From Octopus vulgaris (taxonomy: Eukaryota), in assembly GCA_951406725.2 (NCBI GenBank), contig OX597816.1:85746001-85810000 (forward strand): a DNA stretch of 64,000 nt, given 5' to 3'. The notes under the pieces were generated by a model. It saw nothing but the letters and a program-made list of their open reading frames with translations. It made no database searches and was not told the origin of the DNA. This document shows, piece by piece, positions 2,410 to 19,863 of this stretch. The position numbers were made by a program, and so were the translations under genes. The number at the start of each line of letters is the position of its first letter. The stretch's first letter is position 1.

Positions 2410-2545
2410 AGGCAACCAGAAGCTTTTTGAATAAGTACTGGGCTTACAAAAGAATAAGTCCCGTGATCGAGTTGCTCGATTAAAGACGGTGCTCCAGCAT
2501 GGCCGCAGTCAAATGACTGAAACAAGTAAAAGAGTAAAGAGTAAA
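2410..2545 (+). mobile_element. SINE 3' portion
   Basis: ataagtactgggcttacaaaagaataagtcc...ggtgctccagcatggccgcagtcaaatgactgaaacaagtaaaagagtaaaagagt. Recurs at about 53125-53295, 62590-62730 and 40975-41130, and inverted at about 22470-22520 and 57190-57350. Confidence 0.75.
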
Positions 2546-2729
2546 TAATAATTAAAATCAAACTAAAGTATAATATAATCGTAACATAACAAAAGAAAAA
2601 ATAGCAATTGGTATAAAATTGCATTAATGACTTGAACTTGAATAAGTGGTTTCACATGAATGGGAATAAATTAAAAGTAAAATTAGCGTGCAGAAATGGA
2701 ATAGTCCAGATGGATAATAAAAAATTAAA

Positions 2730-2800
2730 TTAAAGGAAAGACAATTGTCTATAAAGTATACAACGTAGAGAAAACAGAAGATTTGAACACATCGAGCAAA
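2730..2800 (+). pseudogene. Left half of a decayed L1/Tx1-type ORF1 that was the insertion target
   Basis: Translates KGKTIVYKVYNVEK, which aligns with EKKRIIYKTYDTT in the LINE ORF1 and ENKTVTYRTQDKS in the short-element ORF1. Confidence 0.55.
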
Positions 2801-2928
2801 TTTACCCACGTGTGTTGTTATCTGTGATTAGAAGTTGAAATTTTGTTGTGTAAAGTGATTAATATCGCGCGAGGCGTTTGCCTCCACGTTTGGAAACCTT
2901 CAGAAGAAGGTGAATTGACCCTCTAGTC

Positions 2929-3108
2929 ATGGCGACTTACGCGGGGGTCACGGGAAAGAAAAATAATGATTCGTCGATAATCGTGAAGGATGTTTTCTTT
3001 GAGAAAAGTAAAATCAAAGAATATGAAAAGCTATTCAAAAGGGAGGGTGATAGCGTGAAGCTAATCCCCCCGCGAAAGCAAAAGAGGACAAAGAAAACAA
3101 GACTGTAA
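2929..3108 (+). CDS. N-terminal segment of ORF1 (59 aa, MATYAGVTGKK...KREGDSVKLIPP), overlapping the main ORF1 frame
   Basis: ATG in gtcATGG context. TYAGVTGKK..IVKDVFFE..KREG aligns with KFAEVAGKK..IKKIYIE..KKEG in the LINE ORF1 N-terminus. Confidence 0.7.
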   Translation: MATYAGVTGKKNNDSSIIVKDVFFEKSKIKEYEKLFKREGDSVKLIPPRKQKRTKKTRL

Positions 3109-4328
3109 CGTATAGAACCCAGGACAAAAGTACAAAGAAACTGGCAAGAGTGGAGATAGCAGAGATCGAAAAATGTCTGGGAGACATAATGGATAAATCG
3201 ACCTACGTGAGTAGAGGAAAAAAATTTGGTACGGTGGAGGTGAGATGTGCAACGGAAGAAATTGCAGCCTCACTGGCTACCACTGTTCTAAGAGCGGAAA
3301 CATTTATAATGTGGCCCTCATACAAGGGAAGAAGAGGGGTCCGGGTTAAAATCCCGAATATACCCCCAGAAGTAAAAACAGAATGGCTGGCAACAGCTAT
3401 TCTAGGAGCAGCAGAAGAGGAAGTGGAGGTGGAATCCTTTAAGGAGTCCAACGCAGTAAATTGGAGAGGATATGGGGTAGAACTGTGTTTGATGGCCACA
3501 AAAGAGGACATTGAAAGGTTCCCCTATAGAATAGAAATCGAAGACGAGAAAACCCTCAGTGTAATTGTAGAGGGAAGAAAGCCAAACTGCTACTTGTGCG
3601 GGACAAGGGGGCACATTAAAAAAGAGTGCCCGTTATATGAATTCGTGGCGGAGTATGAGAAGGAAATTGAAGAAAAGAAGAATACGGTAAATGAAAGAGA
3701 AAACATAGAAAAGGAGACAAAACAACAAGAGAAAGGAAATAATAAGTCAACGAAGGAAAAAGAAATAAAAGAAAAGAAAGAAATAGAACCAAAACAGAGT
3801 CAGGAAAAGAAAAAGGAAAAAGAAACAACAGGAAAAAAACAAGAGAGAGAACAGAACCAAACGAAAAGAAAAGACGGCACACAAAAGGAAAAAGAAAAGG
3901 AACATAAAACACGAGAGAAAGAGAGAACAGACAAAGAACCAAAAAGACAAGAGAAGGAAGAAGAAAGAAAAGAAGGCAAAAAGAGAGAAAGAGAGAAACA
4001 AAGAGAGGAGAACAAGGAAGAAGTAAGCCCGAAAAGAAAAACGAGAGAAAACGTAGGACGGAAACAAGATTACTACAAGTTAATAACCTTCCATTTCAGC
4101 CCCGAAATGAAGGAATTGACATGTAGTATGGAGGGACATGTGTGGGTCAACAGGATGACTGATCAGTGGCAGGAGACTGCTCTGATCCCCGAAGAAAGAG
4201 TCGCTGAGTTCCTCAGAGCAGCTGGAGAGAGTGTAAATTTTTACACGGGTGTTCGAGTGAAAGAGCGGCTGCCTGAGGGCTCAGTGATTGACTTTAGAGA
4301 CTTGAAAAGTATTATGGAATACGTGTGA
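3054..4328 (+). CDS. LINE ORF1-like nucleic acid-binding protein: RRM-like region, CX2CX4HX4C knuckle, K/E-rich linker, unknown C-terminal domain
   Basis: Frame is open from 3054 (ORF track starts at GTG 3150). Contains CYLCGTRGHIKKEC. SRGKKFGTVEVR and VIVEGRKPNC match NRGKRYGTVEVR and VFVDGRKPRC in the LINE ORF1. Confidence 0.85.
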   Translation, partial: REANPPAKAKEDKENKTVTYRTQDKSTKKLARVEIAEIEKCLGDIMDKSTYVSRGKKFGTVEVRCATEEIAASLATTVLRAETFIMWPSYKGRRGVRVKIPNIPPEVKTEWLATAILGAAEEEVEVESFKESNAVNWRGYGVELCLMATKEDIERFPYRIEIEDEKTLSVIVEGRKPNCYLCGTRGHIKKECPLYEFVAEYEKEIEEKKNTVNERENIEKETKQQEKGNNKSTKEKEIKEKKEIEPKQSQEKKKEKETTGKKQEREQNQTKRKDGTQKEKEKEHKTREKERTDKEPKRQEKEEERKEGKKREREKQREENKEEVSPKRKTRENVGRKQDYYKLITFHFSPEMKELTCSMEGHVWVNRMTDQWQETALIPEERVAEFLRAAGESVNFYTGVRVKERLPEGSVIDFRDLKSIMEYV

Positions 4329-4581
4329 GATTGTGAGAGGAGAGAGAAGAAAGAAGAGAAAAAGAAAAAAAAAATTGTGAACTATATGTGACGAAAATGT
4401 AACCTCTCGATTCCGGGGATCGAGTGGGCATTTGCATCTCATTGTAAATATTCTTTCATTTGTCATTTTTATTTTAATTTTTCCCTTCTTGTCATTTCGC
4501 TTTCTTATTTTAAGTTCCCCGATTGTATTGTCCCCTCTATGTTCGCCCCTTGTGGGTAGTAATAAAATCACATCGAGGAAA

Positions 4582-6348
4582 TTTACCCACGTGTGTTGTT
4601 ATCTGTGATTAGACGTTGAAATTTTGTTGTGTAAAGTGATTAATATCGCGCGAGGCGTTTGCCTCCACGTTTGGAAACCTTCCGAAGAAGGTGAATTGAC
4701 CCTCTAGTCATGGCGACTTACGCGGGGGTCACGGGAAAGAAAAATAATGATTCGGCAATAATCGTGAAGGATGTTTTCTTTGAGAAGAGTAAACTCAAAG
4801 AATACGAAAAGCTATTCAAAAGGGAGGGTGATAGCGTGAAGCTAATCCCCCCGCGAAAGCAAAAGAGGACAAAGAAAACAAAACTGTAACGTATAGAACC
4901 CAGGACAAAAGTACAAAGAAACTGGCAAGAGTGGAGATAGCAGAGATCGAAAAATGTCTGGGAGACATAATGGATAAATCGACCTACGTGAGTAGAGGAA
5001 AAAAATTTGGTACGGTGGAGGTGAGATGTGCAACGGAAGAAATTGCAGCCTCACTGGCTACCACTGTTCTAAGAGCGGAAACATTTATAATGTGGCCCTC
5101 ATACAAGGGAAGAAGAGGGGTCCGGGTAAAATCCCGAATATACCCCCAGAAGTAAAAACAGAATGGCTGGCAACAGCTATTCTAGGAGCAGCAGAAGAGG
5201 AAGTGGAGGTGGAATCCTTTAAGGAGTCCAACGCAGTAAATTGGAGAGGATATGGGGTAGAACTGTGTTTGATGGCCACAAAAGAGGACATTGAAAGGTT
5301 CCCCTATAGAATAGAAATCGAAGACGAGAAAACCCTCAGTGTAATTGTAGAGGGAAGAAAGCCAAACTGCTACTTGTGCGGGACAAGGGGGCACATTAAA
5401 AAAGAGTGCCCGTTATACGAATTCATAGCGGAGTATGAGAAGGAACTTGAAGAAAAGAAGAATACGGTAAATGAAAAAGAAAACATAGAAAAGGAGACAA
5501 AACAACAAGAGAAAGGAAATAATAAGTCAACGAAGGAAAAAGAAATAAAAGAAAAGAAAGAAATAGAACCAAAACAGAGTCAGGAAAAGAAAAAGGAAAA
5601 AGAAACAACAGGAAAAAACAAGAGAGAGAACAGAACCAAACGAAAAGAAAAGACGGCACACAAAAGGAAAAAGAAAAGGAACATAAAACACGAGAGAAAG
5701 AGAGAACAGACAAAGAACCAAAAAGACAAGAGAAGGAAGAAGAAAGAAAAGAAGGCAAAAAGAGAGAAAGAGAGAAACAAAGAGAGGAGAACAAGGAAGA
5801 AGTAAGCCCGAAAAGAAAAACGAGAGAAAACGTAGGACGGAAACAAGATTACTACAAGTTAATAACCTTCCATTTCAGCCCCGAAATGAAGGAATTGACA
5901 TGTAGTATGGAGGGACATGTGTGGGTCAACAGGATGACTGATCAGTGGCAGGAGACTGCTCTGATCCCCGAAGAAAGAGTCGCTGAGTTCCTCAGAGCAG
6001 CTGGAGAGAGTGTAATTTTTTACACGGGTGTTCGAGTGAAAGAGCGGCTGCCTGAGGGCTCAGTGATTGACTTTAGAGACTTGAAAAGTATTATGGAATA
6101 CGTGTGAGATTGTGAGAGGAGAGAGAAGAAAGAAGAGAAAAAAGAAAAAAAAATTGTGAACTATATGTGACGAAAATGTAACCTCTCGATTCCGGGGATC
6201 GAGTGGGCATTTGCATCTCATTGTAAATATTCTTTCATTTGTCATTTTTATTTTAATTTTTTCCCTTCTTGTCATTTCGCTTTCTTATTTTAAGTTCCCC
6301 GATTGTATTGTCCCCTCTATGTTCGCCCCTTGTGGGTAGTAATAAAAT
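4582..6348 (+). mobile_element. ORF1-only element, copy 2 (1-nt frameshifts)
   Basis: Near-identical to copy 1. ORF pieces at 4931-5155, 5026-5805 and 5886-6107 are broken at short base runs. Confidence 0.9.
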
Positions 6349-6361
6349 CAAATGGCGGAAA

Positions 6362-8111
6362 TCAATTTGCGTGTTGTTATCTGTGATTAGAAGTTGAAAT
6401 TTTGTTGTGTAAAGTGATTAATATCGCGCGAGGCATTTGCCTCCACGTTTGGAAACCTTCCGAAGAAGGTGAATTGACCCTCTAGTCATGGCGACTTACG
6501 CGGGGGTCACGGGAAAGAAAATAATGATTCGGCAATAATCGTGAAGGATGTTTTCTTTGAGAAGAGTAAACTCAAAGAATACGAAAAGCTATTCAAAAGG
6601 GAGGGTGATAGCGTGAAGCTAATCCCCCCGCGAAAGCAAAAGAGGACAAAGAAAACAAAACTGTAACGTATAGAACCCAGGACAAAAGTACAAAGAAACT
6701 GGCAAGAGTGGAGATAGCAGAGATCGAAAAATGTCTGGGAGACATAATGGATAAATCGACCTACGTGAGTAGAGGAAAAAAATTTGGTACGGTGGAGGTG
6801 AGATGTGCAACGGAAGAAATTGCAGCCTCACTGGCTACCACTGTTCTAAGAGCGGAAACATTTATAATGTGGCCCTCATACAAGGGAAGAAGAGGGGTCC
6901 GGGTTAAAATCCCGAATATACCCCCAGAAGTAAAAACAGAATGGCTGGCAACAGCTATTCTAGGAGCAGCAGAAGAGGAAGTGGAGGTGGAATCCTTTAA
7001 GGAGTCCAACGCAGTAAATTGGAGAGGATATGGGGTAGAACTGTGTTTGATGGCCACAAAAGAGGACATTGAAAGGTTCCCCTATAGAATAGAAATCGAA
7101 GACGAGAAAACCCTCAGTGTAATTGTAGAGGGAAGAAAGCCAAACTGCTACTTGTGCGGGACAAGGGGGCACATTAAAAAAGAGTGCCCGTTATACGAAT
7201 TCGTAGCGGAGTGCGAGCAGGAACTCGAAAAGAAGAATACAGTAAATGAAAAAGAAAACATAGAAAAGGAAACAAAACAACAAGAGAAAGGAAATAATAA
7301 GTCAACGAAGGAAAAAGAAATAAAAGAAAAGAAAGAAATAGAACCAAAACAGAGTCAGGAAAAGAAAAAGGAAAAAGAAACAACAGGAAAAAAACAAGAG
7401 AGAGACAGAATCAAACGAAAAGAAAAGACGGCACACAAAAGGAAAAAGAAAAGGAACATAAAACACGAGAGAAAGAACCAAAAAGACAAGAGAAGGAAGG
7501 AGAAAGAAAAGAAGGCAAAAAGAGAGAAAGAGAGAAACAAAGAGAGGAGAACAAGGAAGAAATAAGCCCGAAAAGAAAAACGAGGGAAAACGTAGGACGG
7601 AAACAAGATCACGGCTTCTACAAGTTAGTAACCTTCCATTTCTGCCCTGAAATGAAAGAATTGACAAGTAGTACGGAGGGACATATATGGGTCGACAGGA
7701 TGACCGATCAGTGGCAGGAGACTGCTCTAATCCCCGAAGAAAGAGTCGCTGAGTTCCTCAGAGCTGCCGGTGAGAGTGTAACATTTTACACGAGTGTTCG
7801 AGTGAAAGAGCGGCTGCCTGAGGGCTCAGTGATAGACTTTAGAGAATTGAAAACTATCATGGAATATGTATAGAAATGTGAGAGAGAGAGAAGAAAGAAG
7901 TGAAAAAAGAAAATATTGTGAAATATATGTGACGAAAATGTAACCTCTCGATTCCGGGGATCGAGTGGGCATTTACATCTCATTGTAAATATTCTTTCAT
8001 ATGTCATTTTTTACTTTTATTTTTTCCTTTTCTTGTCATTCGCTTTCTTATTTTAAGTTCCCCGATTGTATTGTCCCCTCTATGTTCGCCCCTTGTGGGT
8101 AATAATAAAAT
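6362..8111 (+). mobile_element. ORF1-only element, copy 3
   Basis: Same architecture. ORFs at 6708-7565 and 7652-7873. Diverged 3' half and a different 5' leader (tcaatttgc). Confidence 0.9.
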
Positions 8112-8125
8112 CACATCGGCGGAAA

Positions 8126-9873
8126 TTTACCCACGTGTGTTGTTATCTGTGATTAGACGTTGAAATTTTGTTGTGTAAAGTGATTAATATCGCGCGAGGC
8201 ATTTGCCTCCACGTTTGGAAACCTTCCGAAGAAGGTGAATTGACCCTCTAGTCATGGCGACTTACGCGGGGGTCACGGGAAAGAATAATAATGATTCGGC
8301 AATAATCGTGAAGGATGTTTTCTTTGAGAAGAGTAAACTCAAAGAATATGAAAAACTATTCAAAAGGGAGGGTGATAGCGTGAAGCTAATCCCCCCGCGA
8401 AAGCAAAAGAGGACAAAGAAAACAAGACTGTAACATATAGAACCCAAGACAAAGATACAAAGAAACTGGCAAGAGTGGAGATAGCAGAAATCGAAAAATG
8501 TCTGGGAGACATAATGGGGAAATCGACCTACGTGAGTAGAGGAAAGAAATTTGGTACGGTGGAGGTGAGATGTGCAACGGAAGAAATTGCAGCCTCACTG
8601 GCTACCACTGTACTAAGAGCGGAAACATTTATAATGTGGCCCTCATACAAGGGAAGAAGAGGGGTCCGGGTTAAAATCCCGAATATACCCCCAGAAGTAA
8701 AAACAGAATGGCTGGCAACAGCTATTCTAGGAGCAGCAGAAGAGGAAGTGGAGGTGGAATCCTTTAAGGAGTCCAACGTGATAAACTGGAGAGGATATGG
8801 GGTGGAACTGTGTTTGATGGCCACAAAAGAGGACATTGAAAGGTTCCCCTACAGAATAGAAATTGAAGATGAGAAAACCCTCAGTGTAATTGTAGAGGGA
8901 AGAAAGCCAAACTGCTACTTGTGCGGGACAAGGGGGCACATTAAAAAAGAGTGCCCGTTATACGAATTCGTAGCGGAGTGCGAGCAGGAACTCGAAAAGA
9001 AGAATACGGTAAATGAAAAAGAAAACATAGAAAAGGAAACAAAACAACAAGAGAAAGGAAATAATAAGTCAATGAAGGAAAAAGAAATAAAAGAAAAGAA
9101 AGAAATAGAACCAAAACAGAGTCAGGAAAAGAAAAAGGAAAAAGAAACAACAGGAAAAAAACAAGAGAGAGATCAGAACCAAACGAAAAGAAAAGACGGC
9201 ACACAAAAAGAAAAAGAAAAGGAACATAAAACACGAGAGAAAGATAGAACAGACAAAGAACCAAAAAGACAAAGAAGAAGGAAGGAAAAGAAAAGAAGGC
9301 AAAAAGAGAGAAAGAGAGAAACAAAGAGAGGAGAACAAGGAAGAAATAAGCCCGAAAAGAAAAACGAGGGAAAACGTAGGACGGAAACAAGATCACGGCT
9401 TCTACAAGTTAGTAACCTTCCATTTCTGCCCTGAAATGAAAGAATTGACAAGTAGTACGGAGGGACATGTGTGGGTCAACAGGATGACTGATCAGTGGCA
9501 GGAGACTGCTCTGATCCCCGAAGAAAGAGTCGCTGAGTTCCTCAGAGCTGCCGGGTGTTCGAATGAAAGAGCGGCTGCCTGAGGGCTCAGTGATTGACTT
9601 TAGAGACTTGAAAGGTATTATGGAATATGTATAGAAATGTGAGAAGAGAGAGAAGAAAGAAGAGAAAAAAGAAAATATTGTGAAATATATGTGACGAAAA
9701 TGTAACCTCTCGATTCCGGGGATCGAGTGGGCATTTACATCTCATTGTAAATATTCTTTCATATGTCATTTTTTACTTTTATTTTTTCCTTTTCTTGTCA
9801 TTTGCTTTCTTATTTTAAGTTCCCCGATTGTATTGTCCCCTCTATGTTCGCCCCTTGTGGGTAATAATAAAAT
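8126..9873 (+). mobile_element. ORF1-only element, copy 4
   Basis: Same architecture. ORF at 8475-9434 and a deletion of about 20 nt near 9553. Confidence 0.9.
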
Positions 9874-10099
9874 CACATGGAGGAAATCAATTTTTTGCGT
9901 TATTAGTAAGTTGATATATATTTTGCTCTCGTACTATTATCTCTGTTATTATATACTGTTGGTCTACCTGTTTTGTCTATTGTTGTCTAACTGACGAAGT
10001 CAGCCTTCGCGCGAAGACTTCGCGTTGGTGTTCCCCCTCCGTGGGGGAAAACTACAATTAATTTGGATTTACCAAAGGCTTGTTAAAGCCATTTGTTCA

Positions 10100-11119
10100 A
10101 GATGGAGTCCCCCATCTCTTATTCGCCCGTGACGAGCGAGGATGAATACCCGGCGTTGTCGCCAAGAAAAAAAGAGGCGTTGTCGCCGAAGAAAAAAGTG
10201 GCGGCGTCGCCCAAGAAAATGGAAAAACCAGTACCAGCATCAACTCCAGCAAAAAAATTCGCTGAAGTGGCTGGGAAAAAGATTAAAAAAATATATATAG
10301 AAAATTTGGAAAAATTTGCAGACTGTGTAAAAAAAGAAGGGCACAGAAGTGACTGTGGCCACAAACATACAAAAACATGACGATATAGAAAAAAAAAGAA
10401 TAATATATAAAACTTACGACACAACGACAAAAATGATCCAAAAAATCGAAGAAAAAAAAATAGAGTTTTGTCTAAAACCTTTTATGGATAAAATAACGTA
10501 TATAAACAGAGGAAAAAGATACGGCACAGTGGAGGTGCGTTTTACTATGGAGGAGATAGCGAAAAAACTATCGATGGAGCCAATCAAAGCAGAAAACATT
10601 GTCTTACAACCATTGTATAAAGGAAAAAGGACGTCGAAAATTTCAATGAACAACATACCGCCAGAGGAAGATGCAGAATGTCTGGTGGCAGCAGTGATGG
10701 TAGGCCTGGAGGAAAAAATAAACATCCTCCAGGCCACAGTGGAGGAAGAGGAGTTTTGGAAAGGGCAGAAAATAGTGATAGCCATTCAGGCGGAGGTGCA
10801 AACACTGGAAGAAATTCCAGAAACGGTAAAGATTAGTGAAGACGAGAAAATAACAGTTTTCGTGGATGGCAGGAAGCCGAGGTGCTTCGGCTGCGGCAAG
10901 AAGGGTCATGTAAGGGCGGAATGCCAACCCCAACCCAAACCGCAGGAAGCACCTAAGCCAAGAGAAAAAGAAGATAATGTGTCACCAGAAGCAGCGTCGG
11001 ACGGCCCAGAAGGGAAGACTGAAGGTGTGAGGTGGTGACAGCAGAACCAGCGGCGGAGGAAAAAAAGAGCGAGGAAAAGATAACTGCGGAGGGGTGGGCA
11101 AAAATTACCGGAACTTAAT
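10100..11119 (+). CDS. LINE ORF1 with zinc knuckle, frameshifted near 10340 and 11030
   Basis: ORF pieces 10093-10380 (SPKK repeats) and 10349-11038. Contains CFGCGKKGHVRAEC. An E-rich tail continues in another frame to TAA near 11119. Confidence 0.8.
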
Positions 11120-11147
11120 TACCGAACCACTGATATAAAGGTAAGTA

Positions 11148-14100
11148 ATGGATTACATTTATGTTGGTTGTTTGAATGTGCGCGGCCTGGGAGCAGGCTG
11201 GAAGCAAGGTCGCTTCCTGCATGATATCAGGTCGCGTAATTTAGATGTTATTGTTGCTACAGAAACCCGGTTAGAGGGGCCAAGAGGTCTACTCCCGCTG
11301 TTTGACGGCTACGAGAGTTTTTTCTCTCCTGGCAGTCCTACAGGCGGGAGTGGGGTGTTGGTCCTATTAAAAGAAACCGGGTTTCTGAGAAAAAGTTAAT
11401 TTTTGCAGATCCAGAAGGTAGGCTGGTCGTCATGGATTTGACGTTCAGTAATGGTAAAGTTATCAGACTGGTTGCAATTTACGCACCCAACCATACAGGG
11501 CAAAGTGATTATTTTCGTGAACTAGAAAACTTTCTTGGTACTTCGCATTCATTAGTGGTGCTAGGAGACTTTAACACAATTTGCAAAGCGGATGTAGATT
11601 GTGTTGGCTCGCGTCCAGATAGAAAAGGCAACAGTGGCTTCATGGAACTGCTAAGCCGCTTTGAGCTAGCAGATCCTTATAGGCTGGAATTTCCGAACGC
11701 TCCATTGTGGACATGGTCAAACAGCGACGGATCTTCCAGGTCATATTTAGATAGAATACTAATTAGAAAAGTAGACAGTAAAATAGCTAAGTGTCCACAG
11801 TTTTACCCGATCAGCTACAGTGATCATAAAATGGTCACTTGTAAGCTTGACATAGATAAGGTTAAAAATAGAGGATCCGGTTACTGGAAACTTAATACGT
11901 CCCTTTTGGCGATTAAGGAGTACAAAGACCGGATTAGGAATATAATTCAGAGGGCACTATCTGGTACCATCATTAATAACAAATGGTGGTACGCCCTCAA
12001 ACGAGCCATCAAGTTTGAGTCTATTAGATATAGCATAGGAGTAGTGGCTAGAGAGGCTAGAAGGGAAACTACTCTAGTTAAGGAATTAGAGGAAGCCATG
12101 AAAACTGGCTCTGCGGCTCAGGTGGCGTCCAAGAGACTGGTGTTAAACCAGCACCTCGAGGCCAAACACATGGGCTGCATTGTCAGGGCTAGAATCCGCC
12201 ATATGGGATGTGAAGGAATCAACGCCGTGAGATGGGCCCGAGTGGTGGAAGCTCAGCATGGTAACGATGCCACGATTCGATCTTTGACGAACCAACAAGG
12301 TGAGTTGATAAACGAACCCGAGGAGATGTGTGAGGCCTTTCAGGAGCACTTCGCTCAGCTTTTCGGTGAGTGCGGCGGACTGGATAGGAGGAGGGCCTTT
12401 ACGGACCTACTCGACGGGCTGCCGCGCTTATCGGGGCGAGATGCGGAGGGCTGTGAAGGGCCAATCACGCCTGAGGAGGTGGTTGAGGCAATGGCGGACT
12501 GCGGCGTGGGCAAGGCGCCGGGTTTGGATGGTCTACCCTATGAGTTATATAAGAGTATGCCAGACTTGTTCGGGCACCTACTGGCGGAGGTCTATGCGAA
12601 CTGGCAGCAGAACGGGCTTATACCCAGATCTGTGCGCCGGGGAGTAGTGACTCTCGTCAGAAAGGACCCGAGCAAGGGGGAGTGCATTGATAATTTCAGG
12701 CCCATCACTCTGCTAAACACAGAGTTGAAGATTTTGGCCAAAGTGTTATCGAAAAGATTGGCGCGTGTCGCGGATGGTCTGATCGGAGAGGCACAGACAT
12801 GTGCCGTTCCGGGCAGATCCATTCAGGATAATCTCCATCTAATGCGGTACACTATAGAGGGGTTTAATAGTGATTCTGGCAAGGGTGGGGCACTGGTCCA
12901 TTTAGACCAATCTAAAGCTTTTGATAGGGTCGACCATCGTTACCTGGTATCTGCCCTGGCACAGTTCGGGCTGAGCCTTGGCTTCCTCAGGTGGATTATC
13001 CAAATTTATGATAACATCGACTCGGTAGTTCGGGTGAACGGCTTCTTGTCGAAGCCGTTCAAAATCAAACGCTCGGTTCGTCAAGGGTGTCCGCTCTCCC
13101 CGCTTTTGTACGTGATGGCTCTTGAGCCATTACTGCGAAAACTGAGCGGCATCCCGAGACAGCCAGGTAATGGAAAATCAGTGTCAGCGTACGCGGATGA
13201 CATCACCATCATCGTAACCGAAATGGACCACCTATGTAAAGTAGGCAAGGCCATAGAGGTTTACGAGACGGTGACAGGAGCAAAAGTTAATCGCGAAAAG
13301 TCAGTCGGCTTGCAACTCGGCACCTGGAGAGGCAAGTCGATGCCTCCTGACAGCGTCGTGGGACGTTGGACGGAGGGTCCGATTAAACTGCTAGGGGTCT
13401 GGTTCGGTCCAGACCTCCAAATAGAGAAGAATTGGGGCGAGGTAACGAGCAAGGTGGCTGCAGTAGCCAAGACCTGGTCTTGGCGGTGGCTATCCCTGAA
13501 AGGGAGGGCGGAGGTGGCCAATGTGTTTATCGCATCGGTTATCACCTACCGCCTTTCCGTCGTTCCTTGCCCTGATTCGTGGTTGATCAAGTTGGAAAGA
13601 CAGCTCTTCTACTTCTTGTGGAAGGGCGGGAAACCACTTGTGAAACGCTCTACTTGCTGTCGACAACCGTTAAAGGGTGGGCTAGTGATGCCGTGGCTGA
13701 TGATGCGCAGACATGCGCTGAGGTTAAGACATCTGTGGCTCTACCTGGATGGTGAACGGGTGTGGTCTTCGCTAGCAAAACTGATGTTTCCCAAGTTCAC
13801 TAGTTTCGGTGGATGGGAAACCTGGCTGAATCGTAGATCGAAACTTGGTACTTGGTACACGGAGTGTCGCAAGGCTCTCCTGCTATTCCGTCGCTCGGGC
13901 AACGCCTGCGGTGGGGGTTCCACCACATTCTTCTATAGAGGGTTGGTAGAGGCGGAATGTGAAGATACCTTGGGGAAACCCTAGGTCTCGACGATAATCA
14001 GCTGGCCAGTCTGTTCCGACGTACGTTCAAGCCGAGGACACTGGACAACTTCCAGAAGTCTCTGGCATGGCAATGCTACAGAGGAGCTCTACCTGTTCGG

Positions 14101-14541
14101 GATAAACTCGCAAGGCACGGTGGCCAAGACAGTCCGATATGTCCAAGATGCGGGCGGGATAGGGAAACCGTCCCGCACGCTATTGTTCATTGTCCGGACG
14201 TGTCTGAGGTGTGGGTTTATGCCGAACAGCTGTTGTCAGGTACACGAAGAGTACAGCTGTCGACTGAGTCGATTACAAAAATTGACCCACCGGATTTCCT
14301 CGTGAATGAAGGTAAGTTTCGTTTTCTCGTTGTAGTAGCAATTGCGAAAGAGGTGATATGGAAGACGAGAATGAAAGGTTTACAGTCAGGCAAGTTCATC
14401 TCCGGCCCTGGTTTGATGAATTATTTCATCTTTCACCTGAAAAGGAAGATAGGGCTGGAGAGAATATGCCTGACTAGGAGAGTGTATGAAGAACGATGGA
14501 AGGATGTAGCACGAAAGTTGCGAGTGAAAGATACAACATAA
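11148..14541 (+). CDS. LINE ORF2: APE endonuclease, reverse transcriptase and C-terminal CCHC; two frameshifts (about 11372 and 13978)
   Basis: Endonuclease motifs LNVRGL, ATET, IYAPN, LGDFN, YLDRI, SDH. RT motifs KAPGLDG, FRPITLLN, LDQSKAFDRV, RQGCPLSP, AYADD. C-terminal CPRC-x7-H-x4-C (CPRCGRDRETVPHAIVHC) near 14140-14195. Confidence 0.93.
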
Positions 14542-14785
14542 ATGTAATACCAAGCGCAACCAAAAGTATCAGTGGGGAGGCGGGGCTCGTGGGGTCCGAG
14601 CTAAACCCGCACCCACTCCACCCGTAATGTCTTCCGGTCTGTCCCATCATTCGATTTCTGTCCATTTATTGTAATTCATGAAAATTTTTAAATTCGATTT
14701 ATTGTAAAAACCCATTCGTGTGTCTGACCCCATCATCAGATTATATTGTCCCATCTATGTTCGCCCCTTGTGGGTAATAATAAAA

Positions 14786-15095
14786 CAACATGGAGGAAAG
14801 CACCTTCGAAAAGTGTCTTGGTGTGACTATGAAAGATATCTAATCAGAGGCGGTAAATTCGCCACAATAGAAGCAAGGATCGAGTCAACGGAGCGTGCAA
14901 GGGAGTACTCGACTCGAAGTTGCAAAGTGGAAATATTTTATTTTTACCTTTATATCTGGGACATAGGATTTCCCGGAAAAAAATTTAAAATGCCCTCCCC
15001 CCAGAAGTAGAGGTAGGCTGGATTGTAGTCACACTTCTATGCAAGAAGGAGGACAAGATACAAATGATTGAAATTACAAGAGACGGGCTAAAAAT
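14786..15095 (+). pseudogene. Right half of the decayed ORF1 target
   Basis: MEESTFEKCLG / IRGGKFATIEARIESTERA / PPEVEVGWIVVTLL align in order with EIAEIEKCLG / SRGKKFGTVEVRCATEEIA / PPEVKTEWLATAIL. Confidence 0.75.
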
Positions 15096-15234
15096 TCCAG
15101 TCTGTTATATATTTTGAGTATTGTTATCACTAGCGATATCAAGATATAACTTTGTATTTTGTATTTTATGTGTAGATGTATATATATATATGTACATGTA
15201 ATATGTACACATATATATGCACATATATACATGC

Positions 15235-15276
15235 ACTAGCACTATGACCCGGCAACGACGGGTCTTTGATGCTAGT
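15235..15276 (+). repeat. Helitron/Helentron-like 3' end hairpin
   Basis: actagca..gacccg-gcaacga-cgggtc..tgctagt: a GC-rich hairpin followed by CTAGT. Confidence 0.45.
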
Positions 15277-18296: not shown

Positions 18297-18333
18297 ACAT
18301 TATTGGTGAATTGAAGAACAGAAATCGTTTTAT

Positions 18334-18421
18334 TTCATTCTACACGTGTTTCGAAAGGCACAAATTACCAAAATCCGATTGAATAATGAGACCACATTGT
18401 GTCTTTCTCTTCAGGAAGAAA
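18334..18421 (-). ncRNA. Hammerhead ribozyme, inverted pLTR copy
   Basis: Reverse complement of the motif at 19560-19646, with the core intact. Confidence 0.75.
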
Positions 18422-18539
18422 ATAGGAAATCCGTTGGAAAAACAAAAACAGAACAGAGGCGGAGCAAAAGTGACGTAGTGGAAAATAGAGTAGTAAGCGG
18501 CTGCAGGTCTCGGAACGAATATAGTGACAGGAACGCAGT

Positions 18540-18966
18540 TCTAATTTCAGAAACTAATCCTAGCAGAATAAGATTCACGTCGGCGAACTCCAAGATCAAA
18601 AACGCCGTCTACCAATGCAAGGTTTACACGGACTCAGATGTCTTCACTTATGTAGGGGCCTCATCCTCAAGATTGTCTTTGCGTGTCTCCAACCATTACG
18701 CAACTTTTCGGGACATGAACAAGCGCCAGACCACGGGACTCAGTAAGCTAATATGGCGACTGAAGGATACGAACTTAAGCTACAGGCTGGAATGGTCAAT
18801 TTTGTCGGTGGCCCTCCCATTTGATAGGGGCAGAAGGCAGTGCAACCTTTGTGTCTCCGAACTCTTCCATATTTTGTTTGCCAGAGGCCGGATGGTAAAC
18901 GGGCTTTTACAGTCGGCTTTTCGATGCCCCCATTGGCGGCGTTACACTTATCTGGCTTTTAAATAG
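18540..18966 (+). pseudogene. GIY-YIG endonuclease domain of a Penelope-like element
   Basis: AVYQCKV...TYVGASS...RVSNH...GLSKLIW...WSIL...CNLCVSELFHI. Confidence 0.85.
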
Positions 18967-19559
18967 CGTTTATAAATAATACCGGCACCCATAGCCCTTG
19001 GTAACAAATTCTGAAATAGCCTTTAAGATATCTACGATTAACCACTGCAAGGGGAATTACTCCTGTAAGACAAACGGGGCTTGGTTTTTTCACAGCGGGG
19101 GGTTTCCTTGACAAGGCAGGCTTAGATGAACACACACACATAAAATATAAAATATATATATATTTTTTTTTTCTGCCACCCAACGGCTCTCGCGGCAGTA
19201 GCCACTGACAGCCGAACGCTCAAACGCACACACGTACACAAAAAATGTTTTCTACCCCTACGCCAACACACACATATATAGAACAGTATACACACACACA
19301 CGTCTCTAAGTAGATTTTTTCTCGCCCCTTATAAAACATCCAATATTCCTTAAATAGTCAGAACTTTATTCTCGGTCACAAAGAACACCCACACACCCTC
19401 ACCCACATGATTGACCGATGCCTGACCCGTTAAATTCTTCAGCCACCGGTTCTCAACATACACTGATAAACAGTTTCGCCATGGGCTCTTAGGAGCATAG
19501 TTCGATTTGTTTTTGCTCCGCCTCTGTTCTGTTTTTGTTTTTCCAACGGATTTCCTATT

Positions 19560-19646
19560 TTCTTCCTGAAGAGAAAGACACAATGTGGTCCCATTATTCA
19601 ATCGGATTTTGGTAATTTGTGCCTTTCGAAACACGTGTAGAATGAA
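19560..19646 (+). ncRNA. Type I hammerhead ribozyme in the pLTR
   Basis: ttcttc-CTGAAGA-gaaagacacaa...ttgtgcctttc-GAAA-cacgtg-TA-gaatgaa, followed by AATAAA. Predicted cleavage after 19639. Confidence 0.8.
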
Positions 19647-19863
19647 ATAAAACGATTTCTGTTCAATCTGCGTTCAGCTCCATTTCTTCAATTCACCAAT
19701 AATGTTTTAATTTCAATTATCCGCACCAACGCACGGTTGCAACACCATATGGTTGTACCTCCAACCGTGCTGTTTACTGCTGTGATTTTTGCTACTAAGG
19801 TATCGGTTAAACCTTTGATTAATCTACTACAAGATTATTCATCTTTCAATTTCACATAATATA

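Follow-up and report, generated by a model that had tools for sequence, protein, structure and literature searches.

The locus and its retroelement units

The window (the whole stretch of DNA that was analysed, 64,000 nucleotides) is AT-rich and microsatellite-rich animal DNA. The closest named proteins to those encoded in it come from Octopus and Argonauta. As listed in Table 1, the window contains a 12-kb train of retroelement units (2789-14787), in which four ORF1-only units of ~1.77 kb each (A1-A4) and one LINE of 4.9 kb (B) are arranged head to tail within a repeat, which we call the host repeat. Neither the host repeat nor the train elements were found anywhere else in the 64-kb window. 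A tRNA search of the window gave none. The Rfam search of the window gave nothing at the gathering score; below this score, only two weak hits and miRNA matches caused by microsatellites appeared, and neither a ribozyme nor a small-RNA target family was matched. Exact-pattern scans gave no match in metagenome contigs or viral contigs, and a search for short homologues of ORF1 was likewise without a hit.

Table 1 Features of the train, of the host repeat and of their surroundings in the window
Feature	Position	Strand	Description
Unit A1	2789..4569	+	ORF1-only; ATG at 2929; CCHC knuckle; head ACATCGAGCAAA; common 3' tail
Unit A2	4570..6349	+	ORF1-only; 0.96% different from A1; head ACATCGAGGAAA
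Unit A3	6350..8112	+	ORF1-only; head AAATGGCGGAAA, then ~10 nt like the head of B
Unit A4	8113..9874	+	ORF1-only; head ACATCGGCGGAAA
Unit B	9875..14787	+	Full-length L1/Tx1-type LINE by its domains; this copy frame-broken; 12-nt head identical to the host site
Unit B, ORF1	~10100-11040	+	Inside unit B
Unit B, ORF2	~11140-14540	+	AP endonuclease, RT, zf-RVT
Landing motif ACATGGAGGAAA	14788..14799	+	In the host repeat; codons M-E-E of the fossil ORF1
Host repeat, left	2635..2788	+	ORF1 fossil, N-terminal codons; profile and protein matches, contigs across the empty site
SINE fragment	~2430-2540		To the left of the left part of the host repeat
Host repeat, right	14788..15155	+	ORF1 fossil to ~15085-15130, then AT-rich up to and into a TA microsatellite; coverage very deep in all four runs
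Candidate Helitron-like end	15235..15276	+ (also readable on the minus strand)	GC hairpin, CTAG, then T

In unit B, the Pfam domains Exo_endo_phos, RVT_1 and zf-RVT scored above the cut-off; zf-CCHC was above the cut-off in A1 and below it in B. The ORF2 of B matched L1 ORF2p with an E value of 1e-61 over residues 32-814, and R2 with an E value of 1e-24 in the RT only. Judged by these domains, B belongs to the L1/Tx1 group of LINEs and is nearer to L1 than to R2. The assignment to the Tx1 clade is our assumption, made from element architecture rather than from a tree; no Tx1 name occurs among the best 120 RT homologues listed.

The A units possess an ORF1 with no ORF2 match and have their 3' tail in common with B, which is the composition of an ORF1-present non-autonomous LINE. 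Taken together with the motif, the A and B tails are 88-92% alike over 61-64 nt. In all four A units, ORF1 is broken at a run of six C (3066-3071 in A1) after a short first frame; this common break is a shared mutation, a site of -1 recoding or a homopolymer or assembly error. The A units differ pairwise by 0.96-5.2% in mosaic patterns. Such divergence is at odds with one A unit having simply been duplicated in tandem. It agrees with insertions that took place separately and involved two or more subfamilies, although A1 and A2 could be a duplication of each other.

Three further observations concern these elements and the DNA around them. A protein named "EPM2A-interacting 1-like" in Octopus vulgaris (P0002) is in fact a B-family ORF1 (72% identical), and it reads through the frame break that B carries near 10340. 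At 571-625, the window contains a SINE-like tail close to the A and B tail; contigs with such a tail are abundant, which hints at a SINE-LINE partnership. At 18310-18966, there is an open frame of 218 amino acids, for which Pfam gave one weak unrelated match and which looks GIY-YIG-like. An inverted copy of the start of this frame lies downstream (~19500-19700), as in Penelope-like elements.

The host repeat

According to the earlier note, removal of the train rejoins one ORF1-like sequence. This claim was borne out by an ORF1 profile, by a natural protein that spans the junction and by contigs that cross the empty site. The profile was made from 34 homologues chosen from 152 proteins. The left flank at 2720-2773 corresponds to profile positions 47-64, and the right flank to positions 70-87 (14790-14843), 87-119 (14834-14932) and 113-185 (14911 to ~15130). 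Thus, the two flanks fall on consecutive positions of one profile, which is the contiguity that the earlier note had asked for. A gap of five profile codons at the junction is spanned by 17 nt, giving an offset of +2. The ORF1 match extends weakly to the left as far as ~2635 and fades at ~15085-15130, ahead of the zinc knuckle. Because the train occupies 2789-14787, the right flank begins at 14788; the insertion as proposed stands, but not the starting point of 14786 that had been given for this flank.

The left flank alone is a weak match (profile E value 6e-4 in a focused search). When it was added to the right flank, the frameshift-aware score rose from 58 to 77 against the A ORF1, from 48 to 68 against the B ORF1 and from 57 to 80 against P0002. 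Random stretches of the window reached the observed scores in 2, 0 and 0 of 150 trials, respectively, and shuffled flanks likewise in 2, 0 and 0 of 150. A natural protein, P0120, can be aligned with the left flank and then the right, with 69% over 16 amino acids on the left.

The empty site and the depths were read from the contigs of four public runs, out of 24 listed. In three of the four runs, 11-15 contigs cross to the left of 14788, and their consensus agrees with the window at 2759-2788 in 26-28 of 30 letters. A one-letter variant of the empty-site continuation occurs in all four runs (8-32 contigs). Because these contigs read straight through the empty site, uninterrupted copies of the host repeat exist, and an assembly chimera of unrelated flanks is ruled out.

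From its sequence, the host repeat can be described as an ORF1 fossil of ~550 bp. It belongs, with the train ORF1s, to one octopus LINE ORF1 family, within which it represents a third subfamily, and it is not the ancestor of the train. Its translation, with X at the frame breaks, is 34% identical to either train ORF1 (A, B) and 48-56% identical to the five closest proteins among the matches listed. In a tree of ORF1 proteins, for which 86 of 154 aligned rows were kept (at least 85 of 122 columns covered) and in which many forks are unresolved, the host grouped with P0051 and P0120 with 99/99 support, apart from both train ORF1s.

The frame breaks of the host appear to be common to most copies. 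The consensus of the contigs across the junction has the same length as the window flank; in other words, the +2 offset is kept. Near 14838 and 14918, no indel with a share of 5% or more was listed, although clipping of contigs can hide indels, and eight contigs in run X4 keep the frame near 14918. When the majority letters of the contigs were used, the similarity of the host to ORF1 rose from 124 to 130, from 135 to 154 and from 117 to 132. Because the breaks are apparently common to the copies, the host is likely to have spread as non-coding cargo.

The host repeat is abundant. Its median summed contig depth was 13.7-19.7 times that of the 3' end of B and more than 100 times that over the head of B in all four runs. 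If the shallow pieces are single-copy, the host would have about 10^4 copies; this value is rough, and depth is no copy number. LINE insertion leaves 3' ends in excess of ORF1s. Therefore, the excess depth of the host calls for a carrier other than a LINE. By rough arithmetic, the repeat makes up ~0.2% of a 2.8-Gb genome, this size being derived from figures in the available text of PMC13282606.

The earlier note regarded the target as a third, decayed family of the same lineage. A third subfamily, present as an ORF1 fossil, is retained from this description, but the host is not simply an ordinary decayed LINE copy. That candidate was rejected because the repeat is high-copy, with a depth far above that of the B 3' end, because its breaks are apparently common to the copies, and because neither an ORF2 nor a LINE tail follows the fossil in the window.

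We give about even odds to the idea that the host was spread as cargo of a non-autonomous Helitron. At 15246-15276, a hairpin is followed by CTAG and then T, which has the form of a Helitron 3' end (hairpin plus CTRR, then T); it is the sole such site in the window, where 0.01 would be expected by chance, and the fold has a z value of -3.9. The surrounding 15235-15276 is a 42-nt near-palindrome within the TA microsatellite, with hairpin and CTAG on both strands. Starting in the fossil, the contigs listed reach 15134, and one of them reaches 15188, in the microsatellite (the stretch examined ended at 15200). For the 5' end, TC-after-A candidates are found at 2558 and 2579, among five such candidates in 1900-2790, with this copy alone compared. 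Terminal inverted repeats of the HLE2 type were rejected, since the matches consist only of microsatellite or are 9 nt long. As described in the available text of PMC11417382, HLE1 non-autonomous Helitrons often reach thousands of copies, and Helitron-like elements carry captured gene fragments. Like these elements, the locus has a candidate hairpin, CTAG and T, ~80 nt beyond the last well-covered part of the host; unlike them, it has no sure 5' TC end at the host, and the candidate 3' end was seen with the fossil in this copy alone.

Unit heads and use of the site

B is bracketed by perfect copies of the 12-mer ACATGGAGGAAA, its head matching the host site at 12 of 12 positions. Relative to the host site, each of the four A heads carries one or two changes, and A1, A2 and A4 have ATCG where the host reads ATGG. 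Along the train, successive heads show eight changes in five steps, whereas 0.6-3 would be expected (P values from 2e-7 to 0.012), and a plain chain of target-site duplications is improbable on this count. Because the variation of the 12-nt motif follows an inherited pattern, the motif that opens the units is probably element-borne and inherited, not a plain target duplication.

Two observations were made on the letters of heads and host sites. The A3 head (6350-6372) is like that of B for ~20 nt and then A-like, which suggests head exchange between the families. The host site (14788-14791) occurs as two variants, ACATGG and ACCTGG, of which ACCTGG has more contigs (24 versus 15, 32 versus 11 and 23 versus 15 in three runs). 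The host copy that was hit is of the ACATGG variant, and all six junctions have A as the third letter.

Contigs of run X10 show the site in another arrangement. Among the matches listed, two contigs of this run join the left part of the host directly to the B head; these contain no A units and lack one letter that is private to the window. Two others join a tail and the motif to the right part of the host. A deep X10 contig (depth 186, which is 35% of the B-head depth; shallow pieces have 4-8) starts at 9874 without a tail, and it would fit many host-B junctions. Alternatively, the X10 junction contigs may show the orthologous locus in its state prior to the arrival of the A units. In the other three of the four runs, host-to-element junctions were not found among the matches listed. 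The depth over the motif behind a tail was roughly 37-59% of the depth of A/B-type tails, which bounds the interrupted host copies at a few percent. Related tails are also found with unrelated sequence following them (8-14 contigs per row among the matches listed, with an agreement of ~0.5). Therefore, either the site preference is not absolute or the tail is common to other families. The host site has likely been used repeatedly.

At 15093-15094 in the same fossil, an element-type 3' tail is joined directly in all four runs (depth 26-754). These junctions may mean that elements land at a further position of this repeat, or that another element has its head here.

A proposed landing pad for the train

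We propose, with a probability of roughly 60%, that LINE B and the four ORF1-only units were stacked at one base of an abundant ORF1 fossil that is a reused landing pad, and that the element-borne motif lets later units stack. A fragment of a third-subfamily ORF1 is present as uninterrupted high-copy DNA, and it would have been amplified after its frame broke, as passive cargo; our best guess for the carrier is a non-autonomous Helitron. Target-primed reverse transcription is the known mechanism behind a step of nicking and copying. In this step, the ORF2 of a B-type element is predicted to nick the target on the left border of the motif, after which it would copy RNA from the tail common to A and B, so that the A units would travel in trans. 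The first 12 nt of each RNA would be an inherited copy of the target; like its counterpart in earwig R2, this copy would anneal where the 5' end is joined, and it would thereby rebuild a usable site. The repeat would serve as a landing pad because it is common and dispensable, and the kinship between host and guests is likely incidental.

Several other explanations should be weighed against this proposal. The elements may simply prefer a short ACATGG-like motif anywhere, including in their own heads, and may have landed once in the fossil because the fossil is common. The tails that continue into unrelated flanks agree with this idea, an abundant host makes single hits cheap, and the X10 contigs could come from one orthologous locus; moreover, beyond the exact junction matches, the window contains seven one-mismatch versions of this degenerate motif, about as many as in shuffles. 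However, the B head equals the host site at all 12 positions and is joined to the left part of the host in a different arrangement in X10, where the deep contig is as expected from many such junctions, and the host makes up, by the rough arithmetic above, ~0.2% of a 2.8-Gb genome. A chance match of the motif had been an alternative in the earlier note; it is weakened, but with 2 + 2 junction contigs listed, in one of the four runs, it keeps some probability. We consider it unlikely, although it is the first alternative to which we would turn.

The earlier note had also suggested that the train may reflect targeting of relatives, as when Tx1L inserts into Tx1D. Here, the lineage would recognise homologous ORF1 codons of related LINEs and disable or parasitise its relatives. 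In the ORF1 of B, the homologous codons (10443-10454) do match the target at 9 of 12 positions and read I-E-E, as do the ATCG heads of A1 and A2, and the junctions at 15093-15094 provide a second set in the same fossil. Against this, protein homology alone predicts such a near-match, and that of B is uninterrupted here; the A units do not have the motif at the homologous codons, and the host, at 34% identity to either ORF1, belongs to another clade. The residues of the motif are also variable across the family: at its two Glu codons, E is the commonest residue, with 30 and 29 of 154 aligned rows, many rows not covering these columns. Thus, of the comparison with Tx1L, the part that survives is that the target is another repeat; kinship as the cause is improbable, and more so than a bare preference for the motif.

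Least probable in our estimate is that the site is set otherwise, either by pairing of the RNA tail with the target or by a host factor that marks a spot like a transcription start. Nine nucleotides of the A tail are complementary to the first 9 nt of the target (rank 6 of 511 host 12-mers; 0.3% in the background and 0.8% in shuffles). However, the tail of the autonomous B pairs more poorly (rank 39 of 511; 4% in the background and 10% in shuffles), and the SINE-like tail at 571-625 is about equal (rank 9), yet it is followed by other sequence. Because the pairing is modest for B and as good for the SINE-like tail, tail-target pairing is only a lead. As for a host factor, the site is preceded by TATA words, at distances of 32 and 39 nt, but such words are common in AT-rich DNA; the A3 head resembles a YY1/initiator motif, but the ATCG heads break the YY1 core. 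These ideas can be combined into a single bolder scheme, in which the LINE would aim at the ORF1 of its kin: a sister fragment amplified by a Helitron to about ten thousand copies would be the target, the 5' heads would be taken from its codons, a complementary RNA tail would find the site, and the trains would renew themselves. We doubt this scheme as a whole and place it after the bare motif preference and before recognition of homologous codons.

Several Tx1 families are known to insert into repeats. According to the available text of PMC4494074, Tx1L inserts into Tx1D (piggyBac), Tx1-Mar and SINEU into Mariner-N4_AMi, Tx1-8_Crp and Tx1-4_AMi into LTR elements and Tx1-9_AMi into Harbinger, and a Tx1 family counts as target-specific when more than 20% of its flanks are one repeat. 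As in those cases, an AP-endonuclease LINE and non-autonomous passengers have a common site in an abundant repeat (its repeated use is read here from contigs), tandem insertions sandwich the target, and one host repeat has two hot spots, the second being a candidate here. The present case differs from those in PMC4494074 in that the host is the fossil of an ORF1 from the wider family to which the LINE itself belongs, in that ORF1 is encoded by the passengers, and in that the units are separated not by a uniform duplication but by sequence that varies by inheritance.

The A units can be compared with ORF1-present non-autonomous LINEs such as HeT-A, HAL1 and Ag-Sponge, a group for which PMC5786205 gives Jockey, L1 and CR1 origins. 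Like these, the A units are ORF1-only and have a 3' tail in common with an autonomous LINE. Unlike them, they stack at an internal site of a repeat, they have one frame break in all four, and their ORF1 is only ~40% identical to that of the partner. For earwig R2, PMC3774820 describes that each element starts with a copy of the target from downstream of the cut, altered by substitutions, and proposes that the RNA carries this copy along. The units here likewise have a copy of the target with substitutions at their 5' ends, whereas R2 cuts its rDNA target with a restriction-like endonuclease and possesses an HDV-like ribozyme; no ribozyme family was matched here.

For O. vulgaris, the repeat annotation in PMC13282606 counts 13 L1-Tx1 families as recently active and places a burst of Helitrons at a distance of 0.09; the word "target" is absent from its main text. 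A preprint on Chlamydomonas (10.1101/2022.06.16.496473) describes ZeppL clusters, and the parts of it covered contain no statement of self-targeting. In the literature covered, which comprised few of the subscription papers and not Repbase, no LINE was reported to target an ORF1-derived repeat.

On the likely best reading, an abundant repeat serves as the landing pad both for a Tx1-type LINE and for the ORF1-only passengers of this LINE, in the manner known from Tx1L and Tx1-Mar. If so, this would be a new kind of landing pad for transposon-targeting LINEs, in which coding DNA of the wider family of the LINE has been turned into a repeat that no longer codes. The two natural variants of the 12-nt site, spread over thousands of host copies, would together with the inherited heads be a natural experiment that informs how AP-endonuclease LINEs read their target and join their 5' ends. 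Moreover, annotation of octopus genomes should take into account that this abundant repeat will score as LINE coding sequence, though it has likely moved by other means.
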